From NCBI GenBank assembly GCA_000091205.1, contig AP006499.2: a stretch of DNA of 64,000 bases. One strand, 5' to 3'. Source of the stretch: Cyanidioschyzon merolae. Taxonomy: Eukaryota. A model generated the notes under the pieces. That model saw only the letters and a program-made list of their open reading frames with translations. It did not search any database and was not told where the DNA came from. Both the position numbers and the translations under genes were made by a program. Positions 2,805 through 63,954 of this stretch are shown here, piece after piece; positions within the stretch are counted from its first letter, which is position 1, and every line of letters begins with the position of its first letter.

Positions 2805-4039
2805 CACCCGCCGTAGCTCGGTTGCAAGGGACTCCACCCCCGCCCGGTCGACCGCTCGCCAATCGTCCGGCCGCATGCAGCGTCACTGGCGGACCCAAGT
2901 ACCAAACGCCCCGTGCGAAAGGCACAGCGCCATCGCCGATGGCCCGGGGGCCGCTGCGCCGGCGCACTGACACCCAAACAAGATGCGTCCCGCCTTTACG
3001 CTCCATGATTGATGAATCTAGCCTGACCTTCCCGGATGCGCGCATGCTCTGGCGAGCAACAGCGGTATACGCCGTCAGCTCCATCCGTGTGCCATCGCCA
3101 GCCGCAGCTTTCGCCGCTCGCGCGCGCACGCACGAGCATGGCTGCGGACGCACACGCACGCCATGCGCATCTCAGCTATCATAGGCACAGGGAATGAACG
3201 TCGCTGGTGCGGCCGCGCGCTACCATATCGTGCAGCCGCATTGCAAATCAAGTCGCACACGCATCACCCGATACATGCGACGTCTGGCGCCGCTGCACGC
3301 TGCCCACAAATCATCGCAACATGATCGGAACTTGCCAGCGCCGGTGAATCTGCATGCAGCGCGCCACAGTCCAGATATGAGTACGAAGCGGGACTTTCGC
3401 GCTCTGTATGGTCGATCCCAACTGTAGCGTACAGCACGTCAACTGGCGGTCCACAGAACGGCGCATCGATTCCGGCTTCGTTACTTTGCAAAACGCTACA
3501 AGCGTCTGCGCGGTTGAGTCGCTCCTGCTGCGCGGACGTTACTGCATATGCCCCTGTTGCGTCTTTCTGAGACTGCATAGTGTGTGCGTAGACGCACGCA
3601 GGCGCACATCGCGGGCGTTGTCCATCCGGTCGCTCTTCAGCATTGCATTTCAGTAGCATGTGCGCCGCACATCAAACATGAATCTATGCGTGCGCATCGA
3701 GCGCGGCTTCCTCGGAGCCCAGCTTCCGCTGCAACGGAACACGCCGCAGCTGTGGGCAGAGGCGCGCTCATCGCCAGTGATGAGCGTACATGTGTCGAGC
3801 TGTTATTCGAGCGCACACAAGGAGAACTTGCATGCCGAGAATTTTCGCTCAGGGTGCCCTGAGATGGTGCTCGTGTGGGGTCATCAGGCGGACCCAGCAG
3901 TTCCTCCGTTCCATCAAGAGCCGAGTGAATAGCGGAGACTACAAGCGCTACCGAGTGACCCATGAGGCATCGCATGCTCCAGGCGCAGACGCTAGCAGTC
4001 GGGGCGCGTGCAGCGCAAGTGTCATATCAGGAGAGATGG
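2805..4039. repeat. Left arm of 1.23-kb inverted repeat (IR-C); GC-rich, non-coding
   Basis: Its reverse complement matches 7806-9038. The ORF-track peptides are mirrored exactly, e.g. 3637..3975(-) equals 7868..8206(+). There are about 1-2 mismatches per 250 bp in the inner part, decaying toward the outer ends. All six frames give short overlapping ORFs, typical of GC-rich non-coding DNA. Confidence 0.9.
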
Positions 4040-4618
4040 TTTCGGCCCCGCTCAAAAACTCTGATTTGGGATCTCAGTGATATGGGACTGAGCGGGGAGC
4101 GCGCATGTTTGCATAAATCTGTTCCAGATCGCCTGTGAAGTTCCCTCTTTCCGAGCAGATGTACGAATGAGGAACCAAGTGCAATCTTCCCGGATTTTCA
4201 GGATATCTGCTCAGCATGATCCAGGGTGAATTGCGCGATCACTCTACATATTCCAAGTTGTCTTCCACAAAAAGCATGAAGAATTCGGGTCATTCAGAAA
4301 CCAAGAAGCAGTATGCTAGTGCAAAACGAAACCGTGCTCATCACGTGCCGAACTTTTTTAAGAGCGCGCACGATGCTCCTTGTTATGCTTGCAGACCAAT
4401 GCGTGGAGCAAAGTAGTGCCCGCTTACCTAAATGCGGAGAGCAATCGCGCATTGAAACGATCCCTGCTAAGACTAATTGAGTTCTAGCCATGAAAATCTA
4501 CATAAAAGATTACTACTGGCTCTAAGCACAGCATGCTCGACAGGAAAAAAGCTCATTTCACGAAAATTTCCGAACTGATTCTGATCCGGAATGAAAATAC
4601 TTGAAAAAGAGAAAGCGT

Positions 4619-6538
4619 CTAAAAAGCCGGCAAGAATGCCTTGTCGCGTGCCAGCGGATTTGCTCTGCCATCTTGGGGTCCATTTCTGAGCATCTGAAGA
4701 ATCAAGACGGATGATAAAATGAAACCGATGTGACGCACTCGGACGTGTGATGGCACTAATGATCGCACTTTCAGACGAGGACGATCGCGGTTTCTCAGAA
4801 ACACATTTTCACCAATGGTCACAAAACGATCGAGGAAAGAGATCCCGTTGGGAAGAATCAAATTACCCGCCGAATCCCGCGGACAAGACTCCGAGTTTTC
4901 GACTACACAGACAGGAATGAATATATCCCTTCGACCGGATACGCGATGTACTTCCTCTTGTGCAAGATGCATCCTTCTAGCAAGATTCTCTTCAAATGTG
5001 AGGCCCTCTGGAGGGAGCGCATACCCATGTGTGAAAACCAGTATGCATCGCTCCCATACTCCACCATCGAAGAGACTCTTCAGTTCCTCCAAAACTAGCC
5101 TGAAACAATGGGATCGGTACGAATCCAGTCGCTCTATAATGCAGACAATGTCGATTTCCAAACCGCGAAGCGCAGCTGCGACACTCTCGCATGTTCCAGC
5201 GCGGCTCCATTTCTTAGAATCCTCCCCAGCTTCATCGTAAAAATATTTTTCAGAGGAAGGGATCTCAATCAAACGCAGAGACATCCCTTCCTTTTCTACA
5301 GGATAAATCAGAACGTTTTCGTTCGGCGAAGGAACGAATTCAGTCTTGCGATTTGGATGCGCTCTTTGTTCCCTTTCACGTTCATACGATCGCTCTTCTA
5401 TTACTTCGAGCCCATGCTCTGGATCTCGTTCTAAAATCTCATCATCCGATAGTATGAGAGCCATGGTGTGGTTGGTTCGTGCGACAGGGCTTCCAAGAAT
5501 GCGGTTAATTGTGGCAGACTTTCCTGCACCGATCGTGCCAGCGAAAAGAATAGTGGCATCTCGAAATGGAGAATGCGCGCGAACGACGTCCACTAATTGA
5601 TTTACAGTGGCGCACCCTGGCCGCGAATCATTCCCAAAGCCGCGAATGATTTCCTCATAGTTCCTTCTTTGGAGACCGACTTGCTTCATGCAAGCTGTGA
5701 ATGCTTCCGAGTCCGTCTTTTCGGCGTAAGCACAAAGCACTTTGCACGCAAGGTGCAGATTTTTTCCTTCAATAACGTCTTCTGGCTCAAACAGTGCATT
5801 GGCATCGAGCCCCGCATTCCGTGCAGAATCCAGAAAGAGCTGAATGCACCGCCGCATGCTGTCCAAATTCCGTGCATCTCCAGAGCACGGAGCGTCTATT
5901 CCGGCAATATGCAAGAAAACGTTAGGGTCGCTGAGCACAGCCCGAAGCCCGTTTGAAGAAGATTCCGATGCGCCTGTTTTTCGTGCGATCCACAACAGGC
6001 AGAGCCTTTCCAAGGCTTTTTCAGTGGCATCTGGAATAGCTCCCCAAGGTTGCTCCCCACAGACCTCCGACAGCGAAGGCTTATCAGAAAGCGTAGGGCT
6101 GGGCCCCTGCTGCCAACTCGACCCAGACTCTTTGAGATCTTTGCTATATGGCGCTGGGCTTGTCACCACGAGTGCTGCGAGACGAGACAGGTTAAGCTCT
6201 TGCTTCACGTGTATACCCATGTTGTAAAGATGTCGCTCATCGGATATGAAGAATTCTCCGTCAGCTGCGTTTTCCGCTCCGTGTCCTTCAGATTCCGTGC
6301 CTTTTCGGGACTGGCTAAGCACCCCTGGAAGAAGATTACGCCGAAAGAGTTGGCGCCGACGTGACCGAGTTCGTCCTGTGGAAGGCCTCGAGCCTCTCGT
6401 GGTTTTATCCGAGTCGGCTGTGCGCCGGCCAGAGACGTCGCGCCTTTCAGCAGCATCATCACCGCGAGGCTCGACACGCTCTGCAAAATCCAGTCTGACT
6501 TGTTCTCTAGTCTGCGGAGAGGTAAAGCTCTCCGTCAT
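4619..6538 (-). CDS. AIG1/Toc34-type (TRAFAC, paraseptin-like) GTPase with ~370-aa N-terminal extension and C-terminal hydrophobic anchor
   Basis: P-loop 'ILFAGTIGAGKSATINRILG' resembles AIG1 'GKSATGNSI' and Toc34 'GKSSTVNSI'. The family-specific 'CILVFTHGYALPPEGLTFEE' resembles Toc34 'LTHAQFSPPDGL'. The C-terminal 'HIGFILSSVLILQML' is a likely TM helix. It is a 639-aa ORF. Confidence 0.6.
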   Translation of the reverse strand: MTESFTSPQTREQVRLDFAERVEPRGDDAAERRDVSGRRTADSDKTTRGSRPSTGRTRSRRRQLFRRNLLPGVLSQSRKGTESEGHGAENAADGEFFISDERHLYNMGIHVKQELNLSRLAALVVTSPAPYSKDLKESGSSWQQGPSPTLSDKPSLSEVCGEQPWGAIPDATEKALERLCLLWIARKTGASESSSNGLRAVLSDPNVFLHIAGIDAPCSGDARNLDSMRRCIQLFLDSARNAGLDANALFEPEDVIEGKNLHLACKVLCAYAEKTDSEAFTACMKQVGLQRRNYEEIIRGFGNDSRPGCATVNQLVDVVRAHSPFRDATILFAGTIGAGKSATINRILGSPVARTNHTMALILSDDEILERDPEHGLEVIEERSYEREREQRAHPNRKTEFVPSPNENVLIYPVEKEGMSLRLIEIPSSEKYFYDEAGEDSKKWSRAGTCESVAAALRGLEIDIVCIIERLDSYRSHCFRLVLEELKSLFDGGVWERCILVFTHGYALPPEGLTFEENLARRMHLAQEEVHRVSGRRDIFIPVCVVENSESCPRDSAGNLILPNGISFLDRFVTIGENVFLRNRDRPRLKVRSLVPSHVRVRHIGFILSSVLILQMLRNGPQDGRANPLARDKAFLPAF

Positions 6539-6824
6539 TTACGGTGCCCTGGAGGTGTCGAGTCCTGCAACTATGCACCTGAGACGCAGCTGAACGAAGC
6601 CCAAACGTTCTGCAGAATCTGAGTAAATTAATACCGGCGTGCAGACGCATACCAACTTTTTTTGACCGTCTCCATGCTATCGGTTTCAACTTGTCATTGT
6701 ACAGCTCGATCCTGAGAGGTTGCCCCACAAAGTTGACTCTTGTCAGCTCCTTGGGTCTCATTTTCAGCACCGCACATTTTCTGATATTGATGATGGCATG
6801 GAAGTCTCGGTTCACGAACTCCAT
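6507..6824 (-). mobile_element. Degenerate Tc1/mariner transposase N-terminal (paired-like HTH with GRPR-like linker) fragment
   Basis: Peptide 'IRKCAVLKMRPKELTRVNFVGQPLRIELYNDKLKPIAWRRSKK' aligns to Tc1 'KTGRPRVTSSRADRLLIRSSKQNP'-type HTH1-GRPR-HTH2. Paralogous copies lie at 48249-48524 and 63535-63954. No DDE domain follows it; the GTPase gene starts right there. Confidence 0.45.
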
Positions 6825-7275
6825 GCGTTTATTGCCTCTGGATCAACGCACTATTGCTAGAGTTCCTCGAACTCGTACCCACTGTCCCACTACAGTCTCG
6901 TCATCCTCCCGTTGGGCATACATCTTTTGCTCAGTTGGCTCCCCTATTTTTCTTCGTCTTCGTTATTTCCTCTTCTTCGCTGCATGGTTGGCGAGAACGA
7001 GATGTTCCGTTTATTACTGCAGTCATCGATGACGGCCCTCAAGGATTCGCAAATTCCAGATCCATAACATTCTCACAGATTTTTACTTTTGGAAAAGAAC
7101 GCACTTAGAACGTATTTACTGAAACCTGGGAAAAAGCATTTGCTTACGCTCATCTGCGGACGGAACACAGATGAGGTGCAAGCCTCGAAATGACGCGATC
7201 GCAAATTTGCACAGTCCATTCGGTTTGGAAAGTCTTGATTAGAAAGTCTTCTGCTCTACTAGAACGAATCCGGAT

Positions 7276-7509
7276 ATGCTTGGGAGGACGCTGAGTTTAT
7301 TAAAGTCAAAAGTGGCCAGAAGTGCCCCGTTTCTTCACGCGAAGCATGGACCGCAGAACTACTACAAAGGAAACCGCTGTCGTCGGCTGGGTCGACACAC
7401 GCGCAAGGGTGGGTACGTCGTAGACCACGCAAACAAGGTCCCTGACTTCAGAATACCGCAAATTCCAGAAGATTTTCCACTGAAACCATATGTTGCAGTT
7501 GGTTCGTAA
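7276..7509 (+). CDS. Mitochondrial ribosomal protein mL41 (MRPL41/yeast MRPL27 family), first exon
   Basis: 'NYYKGNRCRRLGRHTRKGGYVVDHANKVPDFRIPQIPEDFPLKPYV' matches the mL41 family signature (compare 'FVVPDLTGFKLKPYVS'). The ORF stops in ...GGTTCG|GTAAAG, a plausible 5' splice donor. This suggests a downstream exon. Confidence 0.55.
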   Translation: MLGRTLSLLKSKVARSAPFLHAKHGPQNYYKGNRCRRLGRHTRKGGYVVDHANKVPDFRIPQIPEDFPLKPYVAVGS

Positions 7510-7805
7510 AGGTTTCTGGGGCTACGTTTGGACACCTTTCGTCGTGGCGAGGGAAAAATCTGCAGGGAGTTTCAAATAACGCTGCAATATGGACGACTAT
7601 GATGAGAAGACGCTTCTTTCCCCAACTGAGGCGCAACGGTTTTTACACCACTGCCAATATGACGATTAAGGCAAGTACTTACCTCTGAGAGTCCTGATGC
7701 AACCCTGTCAAAAACATATAGCGCAAAAGCACGAATAAGGTCACGGTCCTTCTGTGAGTGGCAGTATTTCACAACGTTGAGTTTTACTCGAAGCAGCTGG
7801 AAACC

Positions 7806-9038
7806 CTCTCTCCTGATATGACACTTGCGCTGCACGCGCCCCGACTGCTAGCGTCTGCGCCTGGAGCATGCGATGCCTCATGGGTCACTCAGTAGCGCTT
7901 GTAGTCTCCGCTATTCACTCGGCTCTTGATGGAACGGAGGAACTGCTGGGTCCGCCTGATGACCCCACACGAGCACCATCTCAGGGCACCCTGAGCGAAA
8001 ATTCTCGGCATGCAAGTTCTCCTTGTGTGCGCTCGAATAACAGCTCGACACATGTACGCTCATCACTGGCGATGAGCGCGCCTCTGCCCACAGCTGCAGC
8101 GTGTTCCGTTGCAGCGGAAGCTGGGCTCCGAGGAAGCCGCGCTCGATGCGCACGCATAGATTCATGTTTGATGTGCGGCGCACATGCTACTGAAATGCAA
8201 TGCTGAAGAGCGACCGGATGGACAACGCCCGCGATGTGCGCCTGCGTGCGTCTACGCACACACTATGCAGTCTCAGAAAGACGCAACAGGGGCATATGCA
8301 GTAACGTCCGCGCAGCAGGAGCGACTCAACCGCGCAGACGCTTGTAGCGTTTTGTAAAGTAACGAAGCCGGTATCGATGCGCCGTTCTGTGGACCGCCAG
8401 TTGACGTGCTGTACGCTACAGTTGGGATCGACCATACAGAGCGCGAAAGTCCCGCTTCGTACTCATATCTGGACTGTGGCGCGCTGCATGCAGATTCACC
8501 GGCGCTGGCAAGTTCCGATCATGTTGCGATGATTTGTGGGCAGCGTGCAGCGGCGCCAGACGTCGCATGTATCGGGTGATGCGTGTGCGACTTGATTTGC
8601 AATGCGGCTGCACGATATGGTAGCGCGCGGCCGCACCAGCGACGTTCATTCCCTGTGCCTATGATAGCTGAGATGCGCATGGCGTGCGTGTGCGTCCGCA
8701 GCCATGCTCGTGCGTGCGCGCGCGAGCGGCGAAAGCTGCGGCTGGCGATGGCACACGGATGGAGCTGACGGCGTATACCGCTGTTGCTCGCCAGAGCATG
8801 CGCACATCCGGGAAGGTCACGCAAGATTCATCAATCATGGAGCGTAACGGCGGGACGCATCTTGTTTGGGTGTCAGTGCGCCGGCGCAGCGGCCCCCGGG
8901 CCATCGGCGATGGCGCTGTGCCTTTCGCACGGGGCGTTTGGTACTTGGGTCCGCCAGTGACGCTGCATGCGGCCGGACGATTGGCGAGCGGTCGACCGGG
9001 CGGGGGTGGAGTCCCTTGCAACCGAGCTACGGCGGGTG
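7806..9038. repeat. Right arm of inverted repeat IR-C
   Basis: It is the reverse complement of 2805-4039 (see the left arm). Confidence 0.9.
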
Positions 9039-12872: not shown

Positions 12873-15621
12873 TATATTCTGGACCTATTTTGCACGACCA
12901 TCAGCACAAGTCATTGCAGTTTGCACCGCGACCGCTTCCTTCTCCTTTCCCGTATCTCCGACTTTCAATACGCTGGCGTCTCCTAGCCCTCCAGCTTCGA
13001 TGTCAGCAGGCGAAGGATGCCGATGGCTGCGTTCATTCGAACCCAGAGTTTCCTGCTTCCAGCCCTCATCGACGTACTTCATGCAAAGGCGGAAGTTGTG
13101 ATCTGCGCTTCTTTTAGCATTTTCATCCTTTTTGTCCACAACTCCGGTGCACCCTTCGCAGCGAGGACACTTGCCCGTTGTCCGGTGCCGCCATACGTCC
13201 ATCGCACGTCTTGCTCCGAGTGCCGCCCTGTGGCGCATGCCTGCTTGCAGTGTCGCTCGGTACACGCCCTCGACGGGTGCAGAGCGCTCCGCTCCATGCG
13301 CTCTTCAGTTTCTGTGCCCAGCGCCATACCCTGCGATCACAGGCTCGGGCTGGGCGATCCCCGCGGCAAGCACCCTCACTGCTGGGCGCGTAAACGCTCG
13401 CTGCTCGATTCGAGTACTCGGAATCCGCTCCCTCGCACGCTCTTCGTTTTTCGCGTACGCTTCCCATCGAAGCTGCCGACGAGCATCACGCGACTCGAGG
13501 TGCCGTGCCAGCTCATGAGTATTGTGCGCGCAGGTTCCATCCACTTGCGACGATGCGGGTCAGCCATCTGCGACTCCCTTCGTCTCCGGTCGCTCGCTCG
13601 CTCGCTTGCGTGTTCTTCTATCCCCATACTCGTTCGCTTCCGCTTCAGCGAAGATGGCAGGCGCGGGAGGAGAAGTCACGACTGTGGGCGTAACTCGGAC
13701 GTTTCCGATCCCGTGCCCCGGGACGGGGTGTCGGTTTCCACATGGGCGTCGGGCTTCGCCTCGGGTCTCACGGAGGCGCTGGTGCAACGCTTCGCTCTCC
13801 TTGGGCTCCTGCCGTTGCTAAGTGCACTGGATTGCAGGTTCACGAGGCCACGCATCTGTACAGCTTGCTGCTCATCGTCGCCGTGTTTCCTGTTCTGAGC
13901 AGGGGTGCGTTGGAGCTCTGATGGGGCCTTGAGGCATGTAGGGCGCTCACGACTGATAGCGGTGGATGCTGCCAGGCCATCGGTCTCGAACGAGGACACC
14001 ACGCCTCCTCGACTTTATGTGAGCGTTCTGTTTCTATCTGTTCCCTGCCTGTCGCATCTCTCTTTAGCGTCGTTCGCTTTTCGTTCCCCCAGCGGTTCAT
14101 GAGTGTCTCCGAAGTTTCGGGCGAAATTTGCGTAGTACGCTTCATGTACTCTATGCTGTCGATGGATACCTCCTCTTCTTCGATGTGCTCCTTGGCCTCC
14201 ATAGGACGTTTCCATGCCCTAATCCCTCGTGCGTGGGCGCCCACTTCGCAGCGAGGCGAAAAAGCCGCGAACCGGGGCGCGCGTACGAGCGACCTATAAA
14301 TGCGTTTACAGCAAGGCGAAAATCCATTCCATTCAGGGGCTCTGGAACAGTTCCCGAGGTGCAGAGGCTGTTTCACTCGCTCGGGTAGGCACTCGCAGGC
14401 TGCAGGTCTATAGTCTCCTCGACATGTTCGTCTTCCAGGATACTCAACGGAGGCTCACGCGCTCTGTATATCCGCCCAGCATATTCAAGTCGGCGAAGCG
14501 CCCGTCATGAAGAGCTCGTCCATGCCGTCCAGGCTGGTATCTGAGTCGTCATCCGCACGTATCCACGTCATCGAATCCTTCACGCGCCATGGGAATGAAT
14601 GCTGGCATGATCCAGGGTCGCGCGGCGTAGTTTTCCGCCCATATACACCTTTGAGTTATCCAGGCTGATTTGGGTCGCGAAGCGAATGCTGGCCTCGAAA
14701 TGCGCAACGTCGTTCGGCTATGGAGCCAAAGTGCCCGCGACGTCGATGAAAGCACAGTGCAGGTGAGGTGTGTCCCGACTACGCTTCGAGACAGTGACGG
14801 CATGAAAGGCCATCGATGCCAACGGTGCATCTACGAAGTTGTTCGGTTTCTCAGGGACCCCGATGCACTGGACGTACACGGTCCTAGGCAGGAGGTAAGC
14901 GCGCCACTGACGCATGCTGCAAAGAAGCGCATGTTTGCGGACGCGGAATCTGATATCCGGCGGGTGCGGGTGCATTTCGAAGTATCCCTTGCCGACAGTG
15001 GTGCCGTAGAATACCTCATACAAACAGCGAAGGAGGGAGTTTCCGAGATCGTATCCCGTGAGATGTAGCGCACTGCTTATTTGGGATGTGGTTTCGTTGA
15101 TGGTTGGAAAGCGAGAATATTTTGTGTTTCAAACGGAATCGATTATATGAGGTGAGGATTTGAACATACTTTCGGTATGAGCTCTTGAAGAAGTATTCGC
15201 ACGAAAACTTCCAACTTTTGCGTCGTCAACCGAGCGTAGCGGCCTGGTGCGCCCACGAGTAGCCTTGAAACATGGAGATCGGAAGCGTGCAGAATGCCTG
15301 ACTTGAGCGTGCAACGCGTAACTAAAGGAAAAGAGTTCAGGCTTCCTTGTACGAATTGCATCATGATATCGGCTATTTTAGGCAACGGTATGTGAGGATA
15401 TCTCGAATCACCTTGATGCTGGTGATGTAACGAATCCCTTCGGTGCAAAGTCGAGGGAGCCACTTTGAAGAGTCGACCGAGAATCCTAGAACGATGCATG
15501 AGTCCTGAGGCCCTCATTGCTGGACTATGAATACTCGGGTCCTGCATCTGAAAATGAGTTCGGGTGAAAAATCGAAATCGAGGAACACAGGCAGCAGCTC
15601 CGTGTTCTACTTCACTCCGAC
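12858..15621 (+). repeat. DR-A copy 1: 2.76-kb GC-rich non-coding direct repeat (full length)
   Basis: Collinear with 28111-30874 at a constant offset of 15253, with about 10 substitutions. Its 5' 1.34 kb is collinear with 18615-19951 at offset 5757, with no differences seen. There are no long or conserved ORFs. It contains (CTCG)n at ~13588. Confidence 0.9.
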
Positions 15622-17674: not shown

Positions 17675-18319
17675 TCACTGTAATGGTTGAAAGTTCGTTA
17701 TCTGCTCGAAAGGCATCTTCCCGTTCAAGAACTCACCATGGATGATGCCCGCAAAGCCGAGCATGGCAAGTCGCCCGTTATTCACTTCCCGATCCCGCAT
17801 GGCCTTGTCGTTCGGCAAGTTGAGGGGATTGAAGCCCAGCTCACCAGGCTTCCGCCCTTTCCATTCCATATCGGAATAGAGCACCTTGCCACGGTGGAGC
17901 AGGAACTCAAGAAACCCGATGAATGCTAAGATCTGAATCATGGCCCCAGACTTGACGAAATAGTCATGGGCTGGTCCAGCGAGTTTAGGAGCCCCCGCGA
18001 AGAACGGAAACTGGTAAAACTCGGTTACGAAGAAGTGCAGGCAAGCGAGCATTGCGACGCGCCCGTTCTTAATCTCGCCCTCTTGAAGCCAGTTAACGTC
18101 GAACGCATCAGAGAAGCGAAGCGGGTCAAAACCACGATATCCCGGCATATCAGGCGACAGGTTAGGCGGTTTCGAAAGGAACGGTAGCGCCGGCGACTGC
18201 TCCATTTTTAGAGTAGCATAACCCGAAGCATGTCTCGAACGGATAGCGCTGGTGCCAGTTGCCTTGGATACCGTATTGGCGCGCTGAACAAGTGGAGCGA
18301 AACTCACGAAAGCGTACAT
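17675..18319 (-). CDS. Light-harvesting complex protein, fucoxanthin-chlorophyll a/c (FCP/Lhc) family, last exon
   Basis: Helix 1 is 'EGEIKNGRVAMLACLHF'. Helix 3 is 'REVNNGRLAMLGFAGIIHGEF'. 'IAFIGFLE' is identical to diatom FCP. 'GFDPL' is present. The 'FVS|FAP' motif sits only 6 aa from the ORF Met. Confidence 0.85.
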   Translation of the reverse strand: MYAFVSFAPLVQRANTVSKATGTSAIRSRHASGYATLKMEQSPALPFLSKPPNLSPDMPGYRGFDPLRFSDAFDVNWLQEGEIKNGRVAMLACLHFFVTEFYQFPFFAGAPKLAGPAHDYFVKSGAMIQILAFIGFLEFLLHRGKVLYSDMEWKGRKPGELGFNPLNLPNDKAMRDREVNNGRLAMLGFAGIIHGEFLNGKMPFEQITNFQPLQ

Positions 18320-18614: not shown

Positions 18615-19951
18615 CGGACGTACTCGCACTATATTCTGGACCTATTTTGCACGACCATCAGCACAAGTCATTGCAGTTTGCACCGCGACCGCTTCCTTCT
18701 CCTTTCCCGTATCTCCGACTTTCAATACGCTGGCGTCTCCTAGCCCTCCAGCTTCGATGTCAGCAGGCGAAGGATGCCGATGGCTGCGTTCATTCGAACC
18801 CAGAGTTTCCTGCTTCCAGCCCTCATCGACGTACTTCATGCAAAGGCGGAAGTTGTGATCTGCGCTTCTTTTAGCATTTTCATCCTTTTTGTCCACAACT
18901 CCGGTGCACCCTTCGCAGCGAGGACACTTGCCCGTTGTCCGGTGCCGCCATACGTCCATCGCACGTCTTGCTCCGAGTGCCGCCCTGTGGCGCATGCCTG
19001 CTTGCAGTGTCGCTCGGTACACGCCCTCGACGGGTGCAGAGCGCTCCGCTCCATGCGCTCTTCAGTTTCTGTGCCCAGCGCCATACCCTGCGATCACAGG
19101 CTCGGGCTGGGCGATCCCCGCGGCAAGCACCCTCACTGCTGGGCGCGTAAACGCTCGCTGCTCGATTCGAGTACTCGGAATCCGCTCCCTCGCACGCTCT
19201 TCGTTTTTCGCGTACGCTTCCCATCGAAGCTGCCGACGAGCATCACGCGACTCGAGGTGCCGTGCCAGCTCATGAGTATTGTGCGCGCAGGTTCCATCCA
19301 CTTGCGACGATGCGGGTCAGCCATCTGCGACTCCCTTCGTCTCCGGTCGCTCGCTCGCTCGCTTGCGTGTTCTTCTATCCCCATACTCGTTCGCTTCCGC
19401 TTCAGCGAAGATGGCAGGCGCGGGAGGAGAAGTCACGACTGTGGGCGTAACTCGGACGTTTCCGATCCCGTGCCCCGGGACGGGGTGTCGGTTTCCACAT
19501 GGGCGTCGGGCTTCGCCTCGGGTCTCACGGAGGCGCTGGTGCAACGCTTCGCTCTCCTTGGGCTCCTGCCGTTGCTGAGTGCACTGGATTGCAGGTTCAC
19601 GAGGCCACGCATCTGTACAGCTTGCTGCTCATCGTCGCCGTGTTTCCTGTTCTGAGCAGGGGTGCGTTGGAGCTCTGATGGGGCCTTGAGGCATGTAGGG
19701 CGCTCACGACTGATAGCGGTGGATGCTGCCAGGCCATCGGTCTCGAACGAGGACACCACGCCTCCTCGACTTTATGTGAGCGTTCTGTTTCTATCTGTTC
19801 CCTGCCTGTCGCATCTCTCTTTAGCGTCGTTCGCTTTTCGTTCCCCCAGCGGTTCATGAGTGTCTCCGAAGTTTCGGGCGAAATTTGCGTAGTACGCTTC
19901 ATGTACTCTATGCTGTCGATGGATACCTCCTCTTCTTCGATGTGCTCCTTG
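18615..19951 (+). repeat. DR-A copy 2: 5' half-copy (1.34 kb), identical to copy 1
   Basis: All mirrored ORF peptides are identical to copy 1. An extra ~55 bp of upstream flank (18560-18614) also matches copy 1 (12803-12857) but not copy 3. The repeat ends abruptly at 19951, with 'ctccttg|ttctaacg' versus copy 1 'ctccttg|gcctcc'. Confidence 0.9.
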
Positions 19952-28110: not shown

Positions 28111-30874
28111 CGGACGTACTCGCACTATATTCTGGACCTATTTTGCACGACCATCAGCACAAGTCATTGCAGTTTGCACCGCGACCGCTTCCTTCTCCTT
28201 TCCCGTATCTCCGACTTTCAATACGCTGGCGTCTCCTAGCCCTCCAGCTTCGATGTCAGCAGGCGAAGGATGCCGATGGCTGCGTTCATTCGAACCCAGA
28301 GTTTCCTGCTTCCAGCCCTCATCGACGTACTTCATGCAAAGGCGGAAGTTGTGATCTGCGCTTCTTTTAGCATTTTCATCCTTTTTGTCCACAACTCCGG
28401 TGCACCCTTCGCAGCGAGGACACTTGCCCGTTGTCCGGTGCCGCCATACGTCCATCGCACGTCTTGCTCCGAGTGCCGCCCTGTGGCGCATGCCTGCTTG
28501 CAGTGTCGCTCGGTACACGCCCTCGACGGGTGCAGAGCGCTCCGCTTCATGCGCTCTTCAGTTTCTGTGCCCAGCGCCATACCCTGCGATCACAGGCTCG
28601 GGCTGGGCGATCCCCGCGGCAAGCACCCTCACTGCTGGGCGCGTAAACGCTCGCTGCTCGATTCGAGTACTCGGAATCCGCTCCCTCGCACGCTCTTCGT
28701 TTTTCGCGTACGCTTCCCATCGAAGCTGCCGACGAGCATCACGCGACTCGAGGTGCCGTGCCAGCTCATGAGTATTGTGCGCGCAGGTTCCATCCACTTG
28801 CGACGATGCGGGTCAGCCATCTGCGACTCCCTTCGTCTCCGGTCGCTCGCTCGCTCGCTTGCGTGTTCTTCTATCCCCATACTCGTTCGCTTCCGCTTCA
28901 GCGAAGATGGCAGGCGCGGGAGGAGAAGTCACGACTGTGGGCGTAACTCGGACGTTTCCGATCCCGTGCCCCGGGACGGGGTGTCGGTTTCCACATGGGC
29001 GTCGGACTTCGCCTCGGGTCTCACGGAGGCGCTGGTGCAACGCTTCGCTCTCCTTGGGCTCCTGCCGTTGCTGAGTGCACTGGATTGCAGGTTCACGAGG
29101 CCACGCATCTGTACAGCTTGCTGCTCATCGTCGCCGTGTTTCCTGTTCTGAGCAGGGGTGCGTTGGAGCTCTGATGGGGCCTTGAGGCATGTAGGGCGCT
29201 CACGACTGATAGCGGTGGATGCTGCCAGGCCATCGGTCTCGAACGAGGACACCACGCCTCCTCGACTTTATGTGAGCGTTCTGTTTCTATCTGTTCCCTG
29301 CCTGTCGCATCTCTCTTTAGCGTCGTTCGCTTTTCGTTCCCCCAGCGGTTCATGAGTGTCTCCGAAGTTTCGGGCGAAATTTGGGTAGTACGCTTCATGT
29401 ACTCTATGCTGTCGATGGATACCTCCTCTTCTTCGATGTGCTCCTTGGCCTCCATAGGACGTTTCCATGCCCTAATCCCTCGTGCGTGGGCGCCCACTTC
29501 GCAGCGAGGCGAAAAAGCCGCGAACCGGGGCGCGCGTACGAGCGACCTATAAATGCGTTTACAGCAAGGCGAAAATCCATTCCATTCAGGGGCTCTGGAA
29601 CAGTTCCCGAGGTGCAGAGGCTGTTTCACTCGCTCGGGTAGGCACTCGCAGGCTGCAGGTCTATAGTCTCCTCGACATGTTCGTCTTCCAGGATACTCAA
29701 CGGAGGCTCACGCGCTCTGTATATCCGCCCAGCATATTCAAGTCGGCGAAGCGCCCGTCATGAAGAGCTCGTCCATGCCGTCCAGGCTGGTATCTGAGTC
29801 GTCATCCGCACGTATCCACGTCATCGAATCCTTCACGCGCCATGGGAATGAATGCTGGCATGATCCAGGGTCGCGCGGCGTAGTTTTCCGCCCATATACA
29901 CCTTTGAGTTATCCAGGCTGATTTGGGTCGCGAAGCGAATGCTGGCCTCGAAATGCGCAACGTCGTTCGGCTATGGAGCCAAAGTGCCCGCGACGTCGAT
30001 GAAAGCACAGTGCAGGTGAGGTGTGTCCCGACTACGCTTCGAGACAGTGACGGCATGAAAGGCCATCGATGCCAACGGTGCATCTACGAAGTTGTTCGGT
30101 TTCTCAGGGACCCCGATGCACTGGACGTACACGGTCCTAGGCAGGAGGTAAGCGCGCCACTGACGCATGCTGCAAAGAAGCGCATGTTTGCGGACGCGGA
30201 ATCTGATATCCGGCGGGTGCGGGTGCATTTCGAAGTATCCCTTGCCGACAGTGGTGCCGTAGAATACCTCATACAAACAGCGAAGGAGGGAGTTTCCGAG
30301 ATCGTATCCCGTGAGATGTAGCGCACTGCTTATTTGGGATGTGGTTTCGTTGATGGTTGGAAAGCGAGAATATTTTGTGTTTCAAACGGAATCGATTATA
30401 TGAGGTGAGGATTTGAACATACTTTCGGTATGAGCTCTTGAAGAAGTATTCGCACGAAAACTTCCAACTTTTGCGTCGTCAACCGAGCGTAGCGGCCTGG
30501 TGCGCCCACGAGTAGCCTTGAAACATGGAGATCGGAAGCGTGCAGAATGCCTGACTTGAGCGTGCAACGCGTAACTAAAGGAAAAGAGTTCAGGCTTCCT
30601 TGTACGAATTGCATCATGATATCGGCTATTTTAGGCAACGGTATGTGAGGATATCTCGAATCACCTTGATGCTGGTGATGTAACGAATCCCTTCGGTGCA
30701 AAGTCGAGGGAGCCACTTTGAAGAGTCGACCGAGAATCCTAGAACGATGCATGAGTCCTGAGGCCCTCATTGCTGGACTATGAATACTCGGGTCCTGCAT
30801 CTGAAAATGAGTTCGGGTGAAAAATCGAAATCGAGGAACACAGGCAGCAGCTCCGTGTTCTACTTCACTCCGAC
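28111..30874 (+). repeat. DR-A copy 3: full-length 2.76-kb direct repeat
   Basis: Collinear with copy 1 at offset 15253. About 10 substitutions are seen as single-aa changes in the mirrored ORFs. The flanks are unrelated to those of copy 1. Confidence 0.9.
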
Positions 30875-61546: not shown

Positions 61547-63534
61547 CAAGATCCGTGAAGAGAGACGCTACATTCCGGTATGGTTGGAGAGATACAATAG
61601 GATTTTGCTGGGAGCCGAGATGCCTGCAAAGGCGCCGCAAAGCTGCTCTGCGTCCATGTGAGAACTGCAACTGCAACGCATTCACCGTTGTAGCGAGCGC
61701 CCTGCGGAAGGCTCGACCCCCGACTGGGTCACTATACAAGTCTCAGATAAAAATGGAGCATTGAACTGCTAGCACTGTTGCTAGCGTTCAATTTTTAGCC
61801 CAATCATTTCTTAGATGCGCATCCTCCGCACTCAAACTAAAATAATAAAAGTTTACAGGTTCACTCGTGGTTTTTTTAGATTCTCGTTCGTTTTTCCGTG
61901 GTAGCTTGTTCGACTCTTTGTTGCTGGAATGCGTTTCTTTGTCGAAATCATAATGATTCACGACGCCATTGAACAAGGGTTCGTAAAGTACCCGATTATA
62001 TTATCCAGTTGATACGTCCAAGATTCCATTTTTCTCCTTTCTTTGCGTCTAGTACGATGAAACAGCGCATTCTTCAAGTGTTTGACCTTTCTGCTTCAAG
62101 ACAGCTGGAGCGCGTAGCAACTTGCACCGCTGGATTGACGACGACGAAGAAAATTCGACATCGTCCCTTGAATAGCGTTTCGTAAACGCACGCCAAACGC
62201 TCACTGAACCAATCACAGCAAGTAATCGATGCGGTTCGAAAAGCAAGTCCTTCCCTCTTGATCGCCATCGACGAAACGGGATTCCGCCGCAATTATAAGC
62301 TATCTCTCACGGGACACGCTCCCAGAGGCACCCATCTCATTTTCCGCGCGGAAAAGGTTCTTGGACTAGAACTAGAGTCGTCGCTGCGATCGCTTCCACT
62401 CGGGATTCCGTCACCGCTTTGAGCCTGGGGGCGTACACGGATCGAGATCTCTCGAGCGCTTTCACAACCTGGAGCTTCCTTCTGGTACTTGTTTCAGCAT
62501 GGTCAACATAGCGTTCCGTGAATCCTCTATCGAATAGAACAGCGAGCACTCGGGCGCGCAGCAGACATAGTACTCGCCAAGTAGTCACCCAGCTCAAGCA
62601 CGTCATCGTAGAGTTCGCCGTCGGACCCGGAAACGGAGGAGCGAACGGACAGGACCCTTTTCTGGCTGTCAAATTGGCATGTGCCGAACGATGAAGAAAG
62701 GGTTCATGATCTGCAGGGCGACCCTTTGAGGAACAGTTTTCGGGTATATCGGGGAACACTTGACCACAATCAGATGTCATCGCCGCGATGAGCGCACCGC
62801 GACTTTACGCGAGGAAGACGCAAATGGCAAGCAAAGCGTAGATCGCCTCTCCCGTTCGAGCATTAAATGCGTGAGCAGCAGCCGGAAGCAGTGAAATGGT
62901 GGCTTTGACACTGCCATGAACATCCTTCTACTTCTGAAAACGGAGCTAGAGGGACAAGAGAATTCTGCGTTGCTACAGGCGCATATGAGAGAGACAAGGG
63001 AAGTAGTCAAACATCATGCCCACCAAGACTGGTATTGACGAAAGTGAGAAGCGACCCAAAGCCTAGTCTTTTCTCCCGAGTTAGAGGGTCGGTCCTCGTT
63101 TGTTCAGAAGTGAGTGTAGATCTGCCTCCACGTTGGGGGCCTATTAATGAAATGATTCATAATCCGCGTCCTCCTGCTGGCAAACCTGCTCTTTCTACTT
63201 ATGGTCTATCACCTCAATTTAGTTCCAATCTCAGGTGAGCGTCATCGAATGCTTTTTCGCAGTTTTCAGCAGGAGCATTGGAGTGCATTCATTTTGAAGG
63301 AATGAATAATCCAAGGTGAAGCCATGGATATGCAGGACAGAGATCCTGTTGTCCCAGTGTTGCCGTATACGACCAATAAAACGAAAAATCTATTTCACGC
63401 GAACCATCGAGCGAAAAGAGCATAGAACGAACAAGAAATAGAACTGGGGAGATGGGCGATAAAAGGTGTTTGCTGGACTGGACGATGCCGAGACTGAACT
63501 TGCACTGAATACACGAGTTCGATGAGTCCCTGCA

Positions 63535-63954
63535 TTGATGAGTTCAACCTGGTTCAATCAATACAAGAGGTTCACGCAGCGTGACTGCAACGCTGCTAGC
63601 AGTATCAGACGATATTCGATGCTCAAGACGGGACGCGAGGAGCTGACACGATCCACACTTGTTGGACAGCCTCTCAGGATTGAAGTCTATGGCGAGATGC
63701 TGCAATTGATAGCATACGGCAAGTCGATATGGGCTGAGATGCATCTCTCGGGTGGATGCTCATTGACCCTCTATGGTCGCGGAACGTTTGCGATGCATTG
63801 TGCATCCTGGGGATCGCTTGGCGTCTCGCTCGAGGAAACTTCGCCTAGCCTCCTTCGCATTGATGCAACTCGTCAGGCAACTATTTCCAGTCTCGAACGC
63901 GGGGTTGCGAGCGGTCCACATTCCCCTGAAATTTTTTTTACCAAACCTTCGTGA
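63535..63954 (+). mobile_element. Tc1/mariner N-terminal HTH fragment (third paralogue), runs toward the window edge
   Basis: 'IRRYSMLKTGREELTRSTLVGQPLRIEVYGEMLQLIAYGKS' aligns with the 6.5-kb and 48.3-kb copies at about 70% nt identity. Any DDE part would lie beyond position 64000. Confidence 0.4.

Follow-up and report, generated by a model that had tools for sequence, protein, structure and literature searches.

A Toc34-like GTPase of Cyanidioschyzon merolae with a calponin-homology domain and an altered G3 motif, conserved in a red algal family

Introduction

The plastid GTPases Toc34 and Toc33 (psToc34 of pea, atToc33 and Chlamydomonas Toc34; PDB entries 1h65, 3bb1, 3bb3 and 7vcf_G) are, in sequence and in fold, the closest described relatives of a protein encoded in the 64,000-nucleotide (nt) stretch of contig AP006499.2 of the red alga Cyanidioschyzon merolae that we analysed (hereafter the window). 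By strong inference from gene order, this protein is CMQ137C. It shares with Toc34 and Toc33 the P-loop GxxGxGKS(S/A)T, the motif (D/E)RLDxYR, THx at G4, ENSxxC at G5, an LPNG motif, a C-terminal hydrophobic tail and membership of the Pfam AIG1 family. Whereas Toc34 has ~310 amino acids (aa; ~34 kDa) and consists of a G domain and a tail, CMQ137C has 639 aa and carries an extension of ~320 aa that includes a disordered N-terminus and a calponin-homology (CH) domain. Likewise, the D-T-P-G of Toc34 lies ~35–40 residues after the P-loop, whereas CMQ137C has E-I-P-S at 82 residues and an insertion of ~40 aa in between.

Three other groups of proteins resemble parts of CMQ137C. The Toc159 family (Toc159/132/120/90) belongs to the same G superfamily and also has a long, largely disordered extension before the G domain. 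Unlike Toc159, CMQ137C lacks an M domain and ends ~55 aa past the G domain in a single hydrophobic tail, and its N-terminus is basic, Arg-rich and followed by a CH domain, in contrast to the acidic A domain of Toc159. The GIMAP/AIG1 (IAN) proteins share Pfam family PF04548 and a paraseptin-type G fold, and some of them are tail-anchored, but they keep the canonical DTPG and have no CH domain; their similarity to the C. merolae protein and its relatives reaches 5e-8 at best and is mostly confined to the P-loop. The N-terminal domain is similar, by profile and predicted fold, to type-3 single CH domains such as those of calponin, transgelin, IQGAP/Rng2, Vav, alpha/beta-PIX and GAS2. In the literature that we searched we came across no report of a Toc34-type GTPase joined to a CH domain, and only automatic UniRef names flag the domain, in orthologues from Cyanidiococcus and Cyanidium.

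Neither the gene nor its annotation as Toc34-like is new, and its function has been questioned in the literature. Baek et al. (2022) did not find CMQ137C or CMP284C, a second Toc34-like protein, with import intermediates; glutathione S-transferase (GST) fusions of both bound preproteins much more weakly than PTF1 and PTF3, and the authors questioned whether the annotated red algal Toc34 homologues are TOC components (PMC9407449). PTF1–3 (CMI311C, CMD101C and CMQ054C) are Sey1/RHD3-like GTP-binding proteins of the same organism that are implicated at the plastid surface. Unlike CMQ137C, they have a dynamin-superfamily fold, are mainly cytosolic without a membrane anchor, and bind transit peptides experimentally (PMC9407449). 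In Galdieria partita, an N-terminally tagged 'TOC34' of unspecified paralogy marks the plastid envelope (PMC12145455).

Results and discussion

A red algal family of CH domain GTPases

The gene is an uninterrupted open reading frame (ORF) from ATG to stop, and its translation matches BAM82044.1/XP_005538080.1 of C. merolae 10D with 100% identity over the full length of 639 residues; GenBank annotates this protein as 'similar to chloroplast outer membrane protein Toc34'. A chance ORF is ruled out by this identity and by full-length orthologues across red algae. An intron-modelling artefact, in which the hydrophobic C-terminus would not be translated, is likewise ruled out, as the frame is continuous and RefSeq-identical and orthologues have conserved the tail.

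An exhaustive HMMER search of 1.84 billion representative sequences with a three-sequence profile recovered 422 relatives. Approximately the top 25 match over their full length in a single stretch; ranked below them are short Toc34-like proteins and long Toc159-like ones, which match in two stretches. The source-named members among the top ~25 are all red algae (Cyanidiococcus, Cyanidium, Bangiopsis, Porphyridium and Agarophyton). These ~25 relatives share the CH domain, the ~40-residue insertion after the P-loop, E-x-P-S at G3 and a putative tail anchor. CMQ137C belongs to a conserved family that has a CH domain and whose GTPase switch is altered; all its named members are red algae. The CH domain, the insertion in switch I and E-x-P-S occur together throughout the red algal classes sampled. 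We found no description of this set of features in the papers searched, and the string 'Toc34' does not occur in the main text of Knopp et al. (2020).

The taxonomy bears on what is expected of such a gene. C. merolae is a member of the Rhodophyta, and its plastid is a primary one with two membranes, so a Toc34 homologue is expected there. The first-pass annotation, a reading of the DNA alone, had assumed an alga with a complex plastid; the identity to the C. merolae 10D protein overturns this, and the case that it built on the reported absence of Toc GTPases from complex plastids of red origin does not apply to an organism with a primary plastid.

Among the other Toc34-like sequences is a predicted protein of 1,082 aa (P0038) that has a PPR-repeat region at its N-terminus, a Toc34-like G domain of canonical type (DMPG) and a hydrophobic tail at its C-terminus. 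Together with P0040 it forms a distinct subgroup marked by 'YVDRLDSKRV / PPDxMTW', and its architecture could be a gene-model fusion or real.

The G domain is of the Toc34 type

Multiple sequence and structure comparisons indicate that the G domain is Toc34-type and not GIMAP/AIG1-type. The protein matches Pfam AIG1 (PF04548) with 35.6 bits, above the gathering cut-off of 27, as do three of three close orthologues (best E 3e-11). When the single sequence is searched against the PDB, pea Toc34 is the top match (4e-18), followed by Chlamydomonas Toc34 (2e-15), atToc33 (~1e-10), Toc120/90 (2e-4) and GIMAP5 (0.96). A profile of 24 family members gives the same picture, with pea Toc34 at 8.5e-33, atToc33 at ~1e-30, Chlamydomonas Toc34 at 2e-29, Toc120/90 at 1e-16, and GIMAPs from 5e-8 to 1e-6. 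Placement in the paraseptin (AIG1/Toc) clade, which had been proposed from the G-domain motifs, is borne out by the Pfam and PDB matches; both motifs quoted in support are present, GKSATINRILG as part of the P-loop region around GTIGAGKS and the other as LVFTHGYALPPEGL (aa 500–513).

The Toc34 model of NCBIfam (TIGR00991) also aligns (E 1.1e-17, 64.1 bits, with a cut-off of 421.55), and the Toc159 model (TIGR00993) aligns over its G part alone (E 2.4e-10, 39.3 bits vs a cut-off of 660.7). Presumed green algal Toc34 proteins fall below the TIGR00991 cut-off too (183–328 bits), and only a plant-type sequence passes it (529 bits), so this model is plant-centred.

We also built a neighbour-joining (NJ) tree of 113 G domains (200 bootstraps), which is unrooted and contains Toc34-like and Toc159-like sequences but no GIMAP or septin outgroup. 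The red algal family forms a clade with 97.5% bootstrap support, and the family plus the short Toc34-like proteins are separated from the long Toc159-like proteins with 99.5%. Of the phylogeny suggested by the first-pass annotation, which was to include GIMAPs, the Toc part is thus covered and puts the family on the Toc34 side. In a Foldseek search with the full-length AlphaFold2 (AF2) model, the top 15 matches are Toc34/Toc33 (E 7e-10 to 2e-7, TMt 0.6–0.7), and GIMAP7 follows at 2.5e-5 (TMt 0.44, root-mean-square deviation 17).

A modified but constrained nucleotide switch

Although the fold is that of Toc34, the switch region differs from it. The distance from P-loop to G3 is 82 aa in C. merolae and 76 aa in the family median, whereas 83 canonical Toc34/Toc159 matches have a median of 37 aa. 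The difference corresponds to a family-specific, acidic insertion of ~40 residues after the P-loop helix. At the G3 position all 83 canonical matches have DTPG, whereas the ExP[S..] form is restricted to members of the family, and E425 and P427 are invariant in the 24 members aligned. Because these unusual residues are invariant across the family, they argue for a modified nucleotide switch under constraint rather than for decay.

Other parts of the G domain resemble Toc34 more closely, including a conserved LPNG motif. Within ERLDSYR, R470 corresponds to R128 of pea Toc34 and is nearly invariant in the family. R475 is the equivalent of the 'dimerisation' arginine (R133 in pea, R130 in atToc33), and is present in C. 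merolae and other Cyanidiophyceae.

A CH domain in the N-terminal extension

The extension is long, as the first-pass annotation had noted, but it covers ~320 aa rather than 370, with the G domain beginning at about aa 323, and it is not wholly of unknown character: it contains a genuine, single CH domain that is type-3-like. The C. merolae protein alone reaches 20.5 bits with Pfam CH (PF00307), below the cut-off of 26, and its orthologue P0016 passes with 36.5 bits. The CH part of the family profile matches PDB entries for the calponin CH domain (4.3e-11), calponin-1 (2.8e-10) and Rng2/IQGAP (2.5e-9), as well as the CH domains of transgelin-2, GAS2, Vav and PIX (overall type-3 range 4e-11 to 2e-5), and the unrelated database proteins that match this part are true CH proteins. 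The AF2 model of aa 165–300 has a predicted local distance difference test (pLDDT) score of 80.6; in Foldseek, 50 of its 50 top matches are CH domains, with TM-scores of ~0.55–0.6 and weak E-values. UniRef automatically labels the Cyanidiococcus and Cyanidium orthologues 'CH domain-containing', and in the searchable literature we found no paper that combines 'Toc34' with 'calponin homology'.

The region before the CH domain carries, in the alignment, a basic motif, TGRTRSRRRxLxRR, and a segment, SDERHLYxxG...LSRL, which is common to other Cyanidiophyceae.

The first residues of the protein, MTESF (6524–6538), recall the N-terminal Phe of red algal transit peptides. We rejected a transit peptide here, since Phe5 is not conserved in orthologues, including that of Cyanidiococcus, and since such a peptide would be at odds with a tail-anchored topology facing the cytosol.

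A putative tail anchor

A Kyte-Doolittle scan finds two strongly hydrophobic windows in the protein. The first corresponds to a buried beta-strand within the G domain; the second, IGFILSSVLILQML, has basic residues before it and 22 residues after it. A C-terminal hydrophobic tail occurs family-wide, after basic residues or an RWWE motif (the RWWE type in many members). By hydropathy and conservation, the earlier description of a Toc34-like hydrophobic tail holds.

Proposed role at the plastid surface

On balance, the explanation that we favour is that CMQ137C is a Toc34-like tail-anchored GTPase with a docking or regulatory function at the plastid surface. The predicted architecture comprises a disordered basic N-terminus, the CH domain, a helical linker, the Toc34-type G domain and the hydrophobic tail. 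By analogy with Toc34, the tail would hold the protein in the outer envelope of the plastid and leave its CH and G domains exposed to the cytosol, and an outer-envelope tail-anchored GTPase is, on this analogy, the likely case. Retention of the G1, G4 and G5 motifs implies that guanine nucleotide may still be bound, and the altered G3 and switch I imply a regime of hydrolysis and switching that would be unlike that of Toc34. The G-domain interface could pair the protein with itself or with CMP284C, and the CH domain and N-terminal region might form a binding platform for a cytosolic partner. The protein would act as a GTP-regulated docking or regulatory subunit rather than as the main transit-peptide receptor; the weak preprotein binding of CMQ137C favours this role over that of a primary receptor. 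Some part in protein import is a real possibility that we rate a little short of even, and service as the principal preprotein receptor is improbable.

Several observations weigh against this proposal. The D-to-E and G-to-S changes in G3 could abolish normal GTPase cycling, and the score with the Toc34 model TIGR00991 stays below its cut-off. The R475 equivalent is lost in family members outside the Cyanidiophyceae, which weakens the inference of dimer activation for the family as a whole. The tail is short, with 14 strongly hydrophobic residues, as judged by a hydropathy scan. The full-length AF2 model, built from a three-sequence alignment, is poor (mean pLDDT 48.5) and served for a coarse Foldseek ranking, and the NJ tree contains no GIMAP or septin outgroup.

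The nearest alternative is a classical Toc34 orthologue that acts as the primary GTP-dependent transit-peptide receptor of a red algal TOC complex. The best sequence and fold matches, the putative tail anchor, the dimer-interface arginines of C. merolae, the grouping with short Toc34-like proteins apart from Toc159-like ones in the NJ tree, and the GenBank annotation all agree with it. Against it, CMQ137C was not detected among preprotein-associated proteins and bound preproteins much more weakly than PTF1/PTF3 (PMC9407449), and the whole family departs from Toc34 in its non-canonical G3 and its switch I insertion. Toc34 also lacks the 320-aa extension with a CH domain; the 64 bits with TIGR00991, against a cut-off of 421.55, point the same way. 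We therefore regard this alternative as unlikely. A serious rival, though again a rather unlikely one, is that the protein derives from Toc34 but has left import altogether, serving as an outer-envelope tether or signalling GTPase whose CH domain links it to cytoskeletal or cytosolic partners in plastid positioning, division or inheritance. The family has kept a genuine CH domain, its switch region is rewired yet strongly conserved, and the protein is missing from import intermediates (PMC9407449), all of which would suit a tether; nothing experimental hints at such a role, however. On their own, single CH domains of type 3 often fail to bind actin, and to our knowledge the cytoskeleton of C. 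merolae is very reduced and its actin not detectably expressed, and both points count against a tether.

Two further alternatives concern the G domain itself. It could be a pseudo-GTPase, a structural scaffold without a nucleotide cycle, given that the aspartate and the glycine of DxxG are both replaced (E-I-P-S) and that the insertion interrupts switch I. Nevertheless, the P-loop G-x-x-G-x-G-K-S/T does not vary among 24 divergent members, and G4 (T-H) and G5 (E-N-S) are retained, which speaks for nucleotide binding having been kept; the invariant E and P at G3 indicate function rather than decay, and we consider a pseudo-GTPase very improbable. Hardly credible is a stress or immunity GTPase of the AIG1/GIMAP type, which the first-pass annotation had offered as an equal option. 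Its case consists of the name of the Pfam match, the presence of GIMAPs among the weaker PDB matches and the fact that some GIMAPs are tail-anchored. The Pfam AIG1 family also covers Toc34/159 G domains, however. With the family profile, Toc34 outscores every GIMAP by 25 orders of magnitude and the GIMAP matches are largely to the P-loop, and Foldseek ranks Toc34 and Toc33 well ahead of GIMAP7.

We suggest tentatively that red algae may use, in place of plant-type Toc34, lineage-specific tail-anchored GTPases of the plastid envelope that combine a CH domain with a G domain derived from Toc34, in which E-x-P is invariant and switch I carries an insertion; their nucleotide cycle and partners would differ from those of Toc34. 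Such a class could act as a Toc159-like partner of CMP284C, or could instead link the surface of the plastid to factors of the cytosol or cytoskeleton, and either role would help to explain why CMQ137C does not behave like a classical TOC receptor. The family offers a concrete way into the question of how precursor proteins are recognised and imported by red algal plastids. E-x-P-S together with the 'RWWE'-type tail also provides a signature that separates the family from canonical Toc34/159 in surveys of red-derived plastids.

The locus and its inverted repeat

The features of the gene and its surroundings are collected in Table 1. The gene order in the window is Toc34-like, mL41, ATP10-like, RADX-like, CRAL/TRIO-like and a light-harvesting protein gene (17675–18319, minus strand; PF00504, E 6.7e-34). 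C. merolae Lhcr1 is CMQ142C (PMC13306765), and counting back along this order from the light-harvesting gene, taken as Lhcr1, numbers the Toc34-like gene 137.

Table 1. Positions of the Toc34-like gene, its domains and motifs, and adjacent features in the window
Feature	Position (nt)	Strand	Residues (aa)	Basis and remarks
Toc34-like GTPase, complete coding sequence, inferred CMQ137C	4619..6538	-	639 + stop	ORF, RefSeq identity, gene order
N-terminal region, R/S/T-rich, predicted disordered	6044..6538	-	1-165	AF2 pLDDT <50 for aa 1-170, composition, alignment
CH domain	5723..6013	-	176-272	Family profile, orthologue Pfam match, AF2/Foldseek
Toc34-type G domain	4784..5572	-	323-585	PDB matches, TIGR00991, Foldseek
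G1/P-loop GTIGAGKS	5516..5539	-	334-341	G334, G337, G339 and K340 invariant in 24 family members
Acidic insertion between P-loop helix and G3 strand, switch I region	5309..5470	-	~357-410	Spacing comparison
G3-equivalent E-I-P-S, replaces D-T-P-G	5255..5266	-	425-428	Alignment to canonical Toc34/159
ERLDSYR, counterpart of pea Toc34 DRLDAYR (R128...R133)	5114..5134	-	469-475	Pairwise alignment to 3bb1/1h65
G4-equivalent T-H-G	5024..5032	-	503-505	Aligns to Toc34 THAQ; H504 invariant, T503 nearly so
G5-equivalent E-N-S	4892..4900	-	547-549	Aligns to Toc34 ENS; S549 nearly invariant
C-terminal hydrophobic segment IGFILSSVLILQML, putative tail anchor	4688..4729	-	604-617	Kyte-Doolittle scan
Mitochondrial ribosomal protein mL41 (MRP-L27 family), divergent from GTPase gene	7276-7509	+	77 in total	PF09809 E 2.7e-12, 47 bits vs cut-off 25
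Inverted repeat, left arm (1239 nt, GC content 0.61)	2805..4043			Repeat comparison; no coding or RNA signal
Inverted repeat, right arm (9 mismatches to left arm)	7800..9038			Repeat comparison

The gene lies inside an inverted repeat whose arms are 3,756 nt apart and are present as two copies only within the window. The arms have a GC content of 0.61, compared with 0.49 in the interior, and searches of them for a gene or RNA gave no Pfam, Rfam or tRNA match. Between the arms are two genes, for the GTPase (minus strand) and for mL41 (plus strand), which diverge from a shared 5' region (6539–7275). Each arm is located in a gap between converging 3' ends, one between a PPR gene and the GTPase gene, the other between the mL41 gene and the ATP10-like gene. 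Inversion between arms so placed would disrupt neither coding sequence, nor the 5' region that the two genes share; an expression switch is not expected from a flip, and the geometry does not suggest a regulatory one.

The gene is present in six public metagenome contigs, of which three (L004–L006) are collinear with the window and three (L001–L003) are flipped, in that the gene-proximal arm is joined to the opposite flank. The arm sequences of the contigs are mosaics of the two arms, which could reflect gene conversion or collapse by the assembler, and they are identical between a flipped contig (L003) and a collinear one (L004). In L004, nt 1–611 are GC-rich and unrelated, and the junction lies 22 nt before the ATG of the gene; at the start of L005, a 97-nt piece of the gene is repeated in inverted orientation. 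The two contigs look chimeric through assembly, and this lowers trust in these contigs as structural evidence. We accordingly rejected the flipped contigs as proof of active flip-flop, given the mosaic arms, the identical arms of L003 and L004 and the chimeric start of L004. In a sister species (L007), the orthologue adjoins the ATP10-like/RADX-like gene pair in the flipped orientation without an inverted repeat, so the repeat-flanked segment has probably been inverted at least once during evolution relative to the ancestral order. The gene had been said to sit in an invertible cassette: the repeat is real, the gene is within it and a past inversion is probable, whereas an ongoing flip is not proven by the contigs.

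Two other repeated elements occur in the window. An element of ~310 nt just upstream of the start codon of the GTPase gene (6706–7012) has a diverged copy at 63379–63683. The copies have 67% nucleotide identity and 42% in one reading frame, and their ORFs (6507–6824, minus strand, and 63535–63954, plus strand) match each other by BLASTP (E 1e-17). The element has no Pfam match and is not conserved at the sister-species locus. A GC-rich direct repeat of ~1 kb is present in three copies of at least 99.7% identity (12885–13898, 18642–19655 and 28138–29151), two of which bracket a block with the CRAL/TRIO-like gene and Lhcr1. The repeat has a strong negative AT skew, and the identical 126-aa and 293-aa ORFs in it look non-coding.

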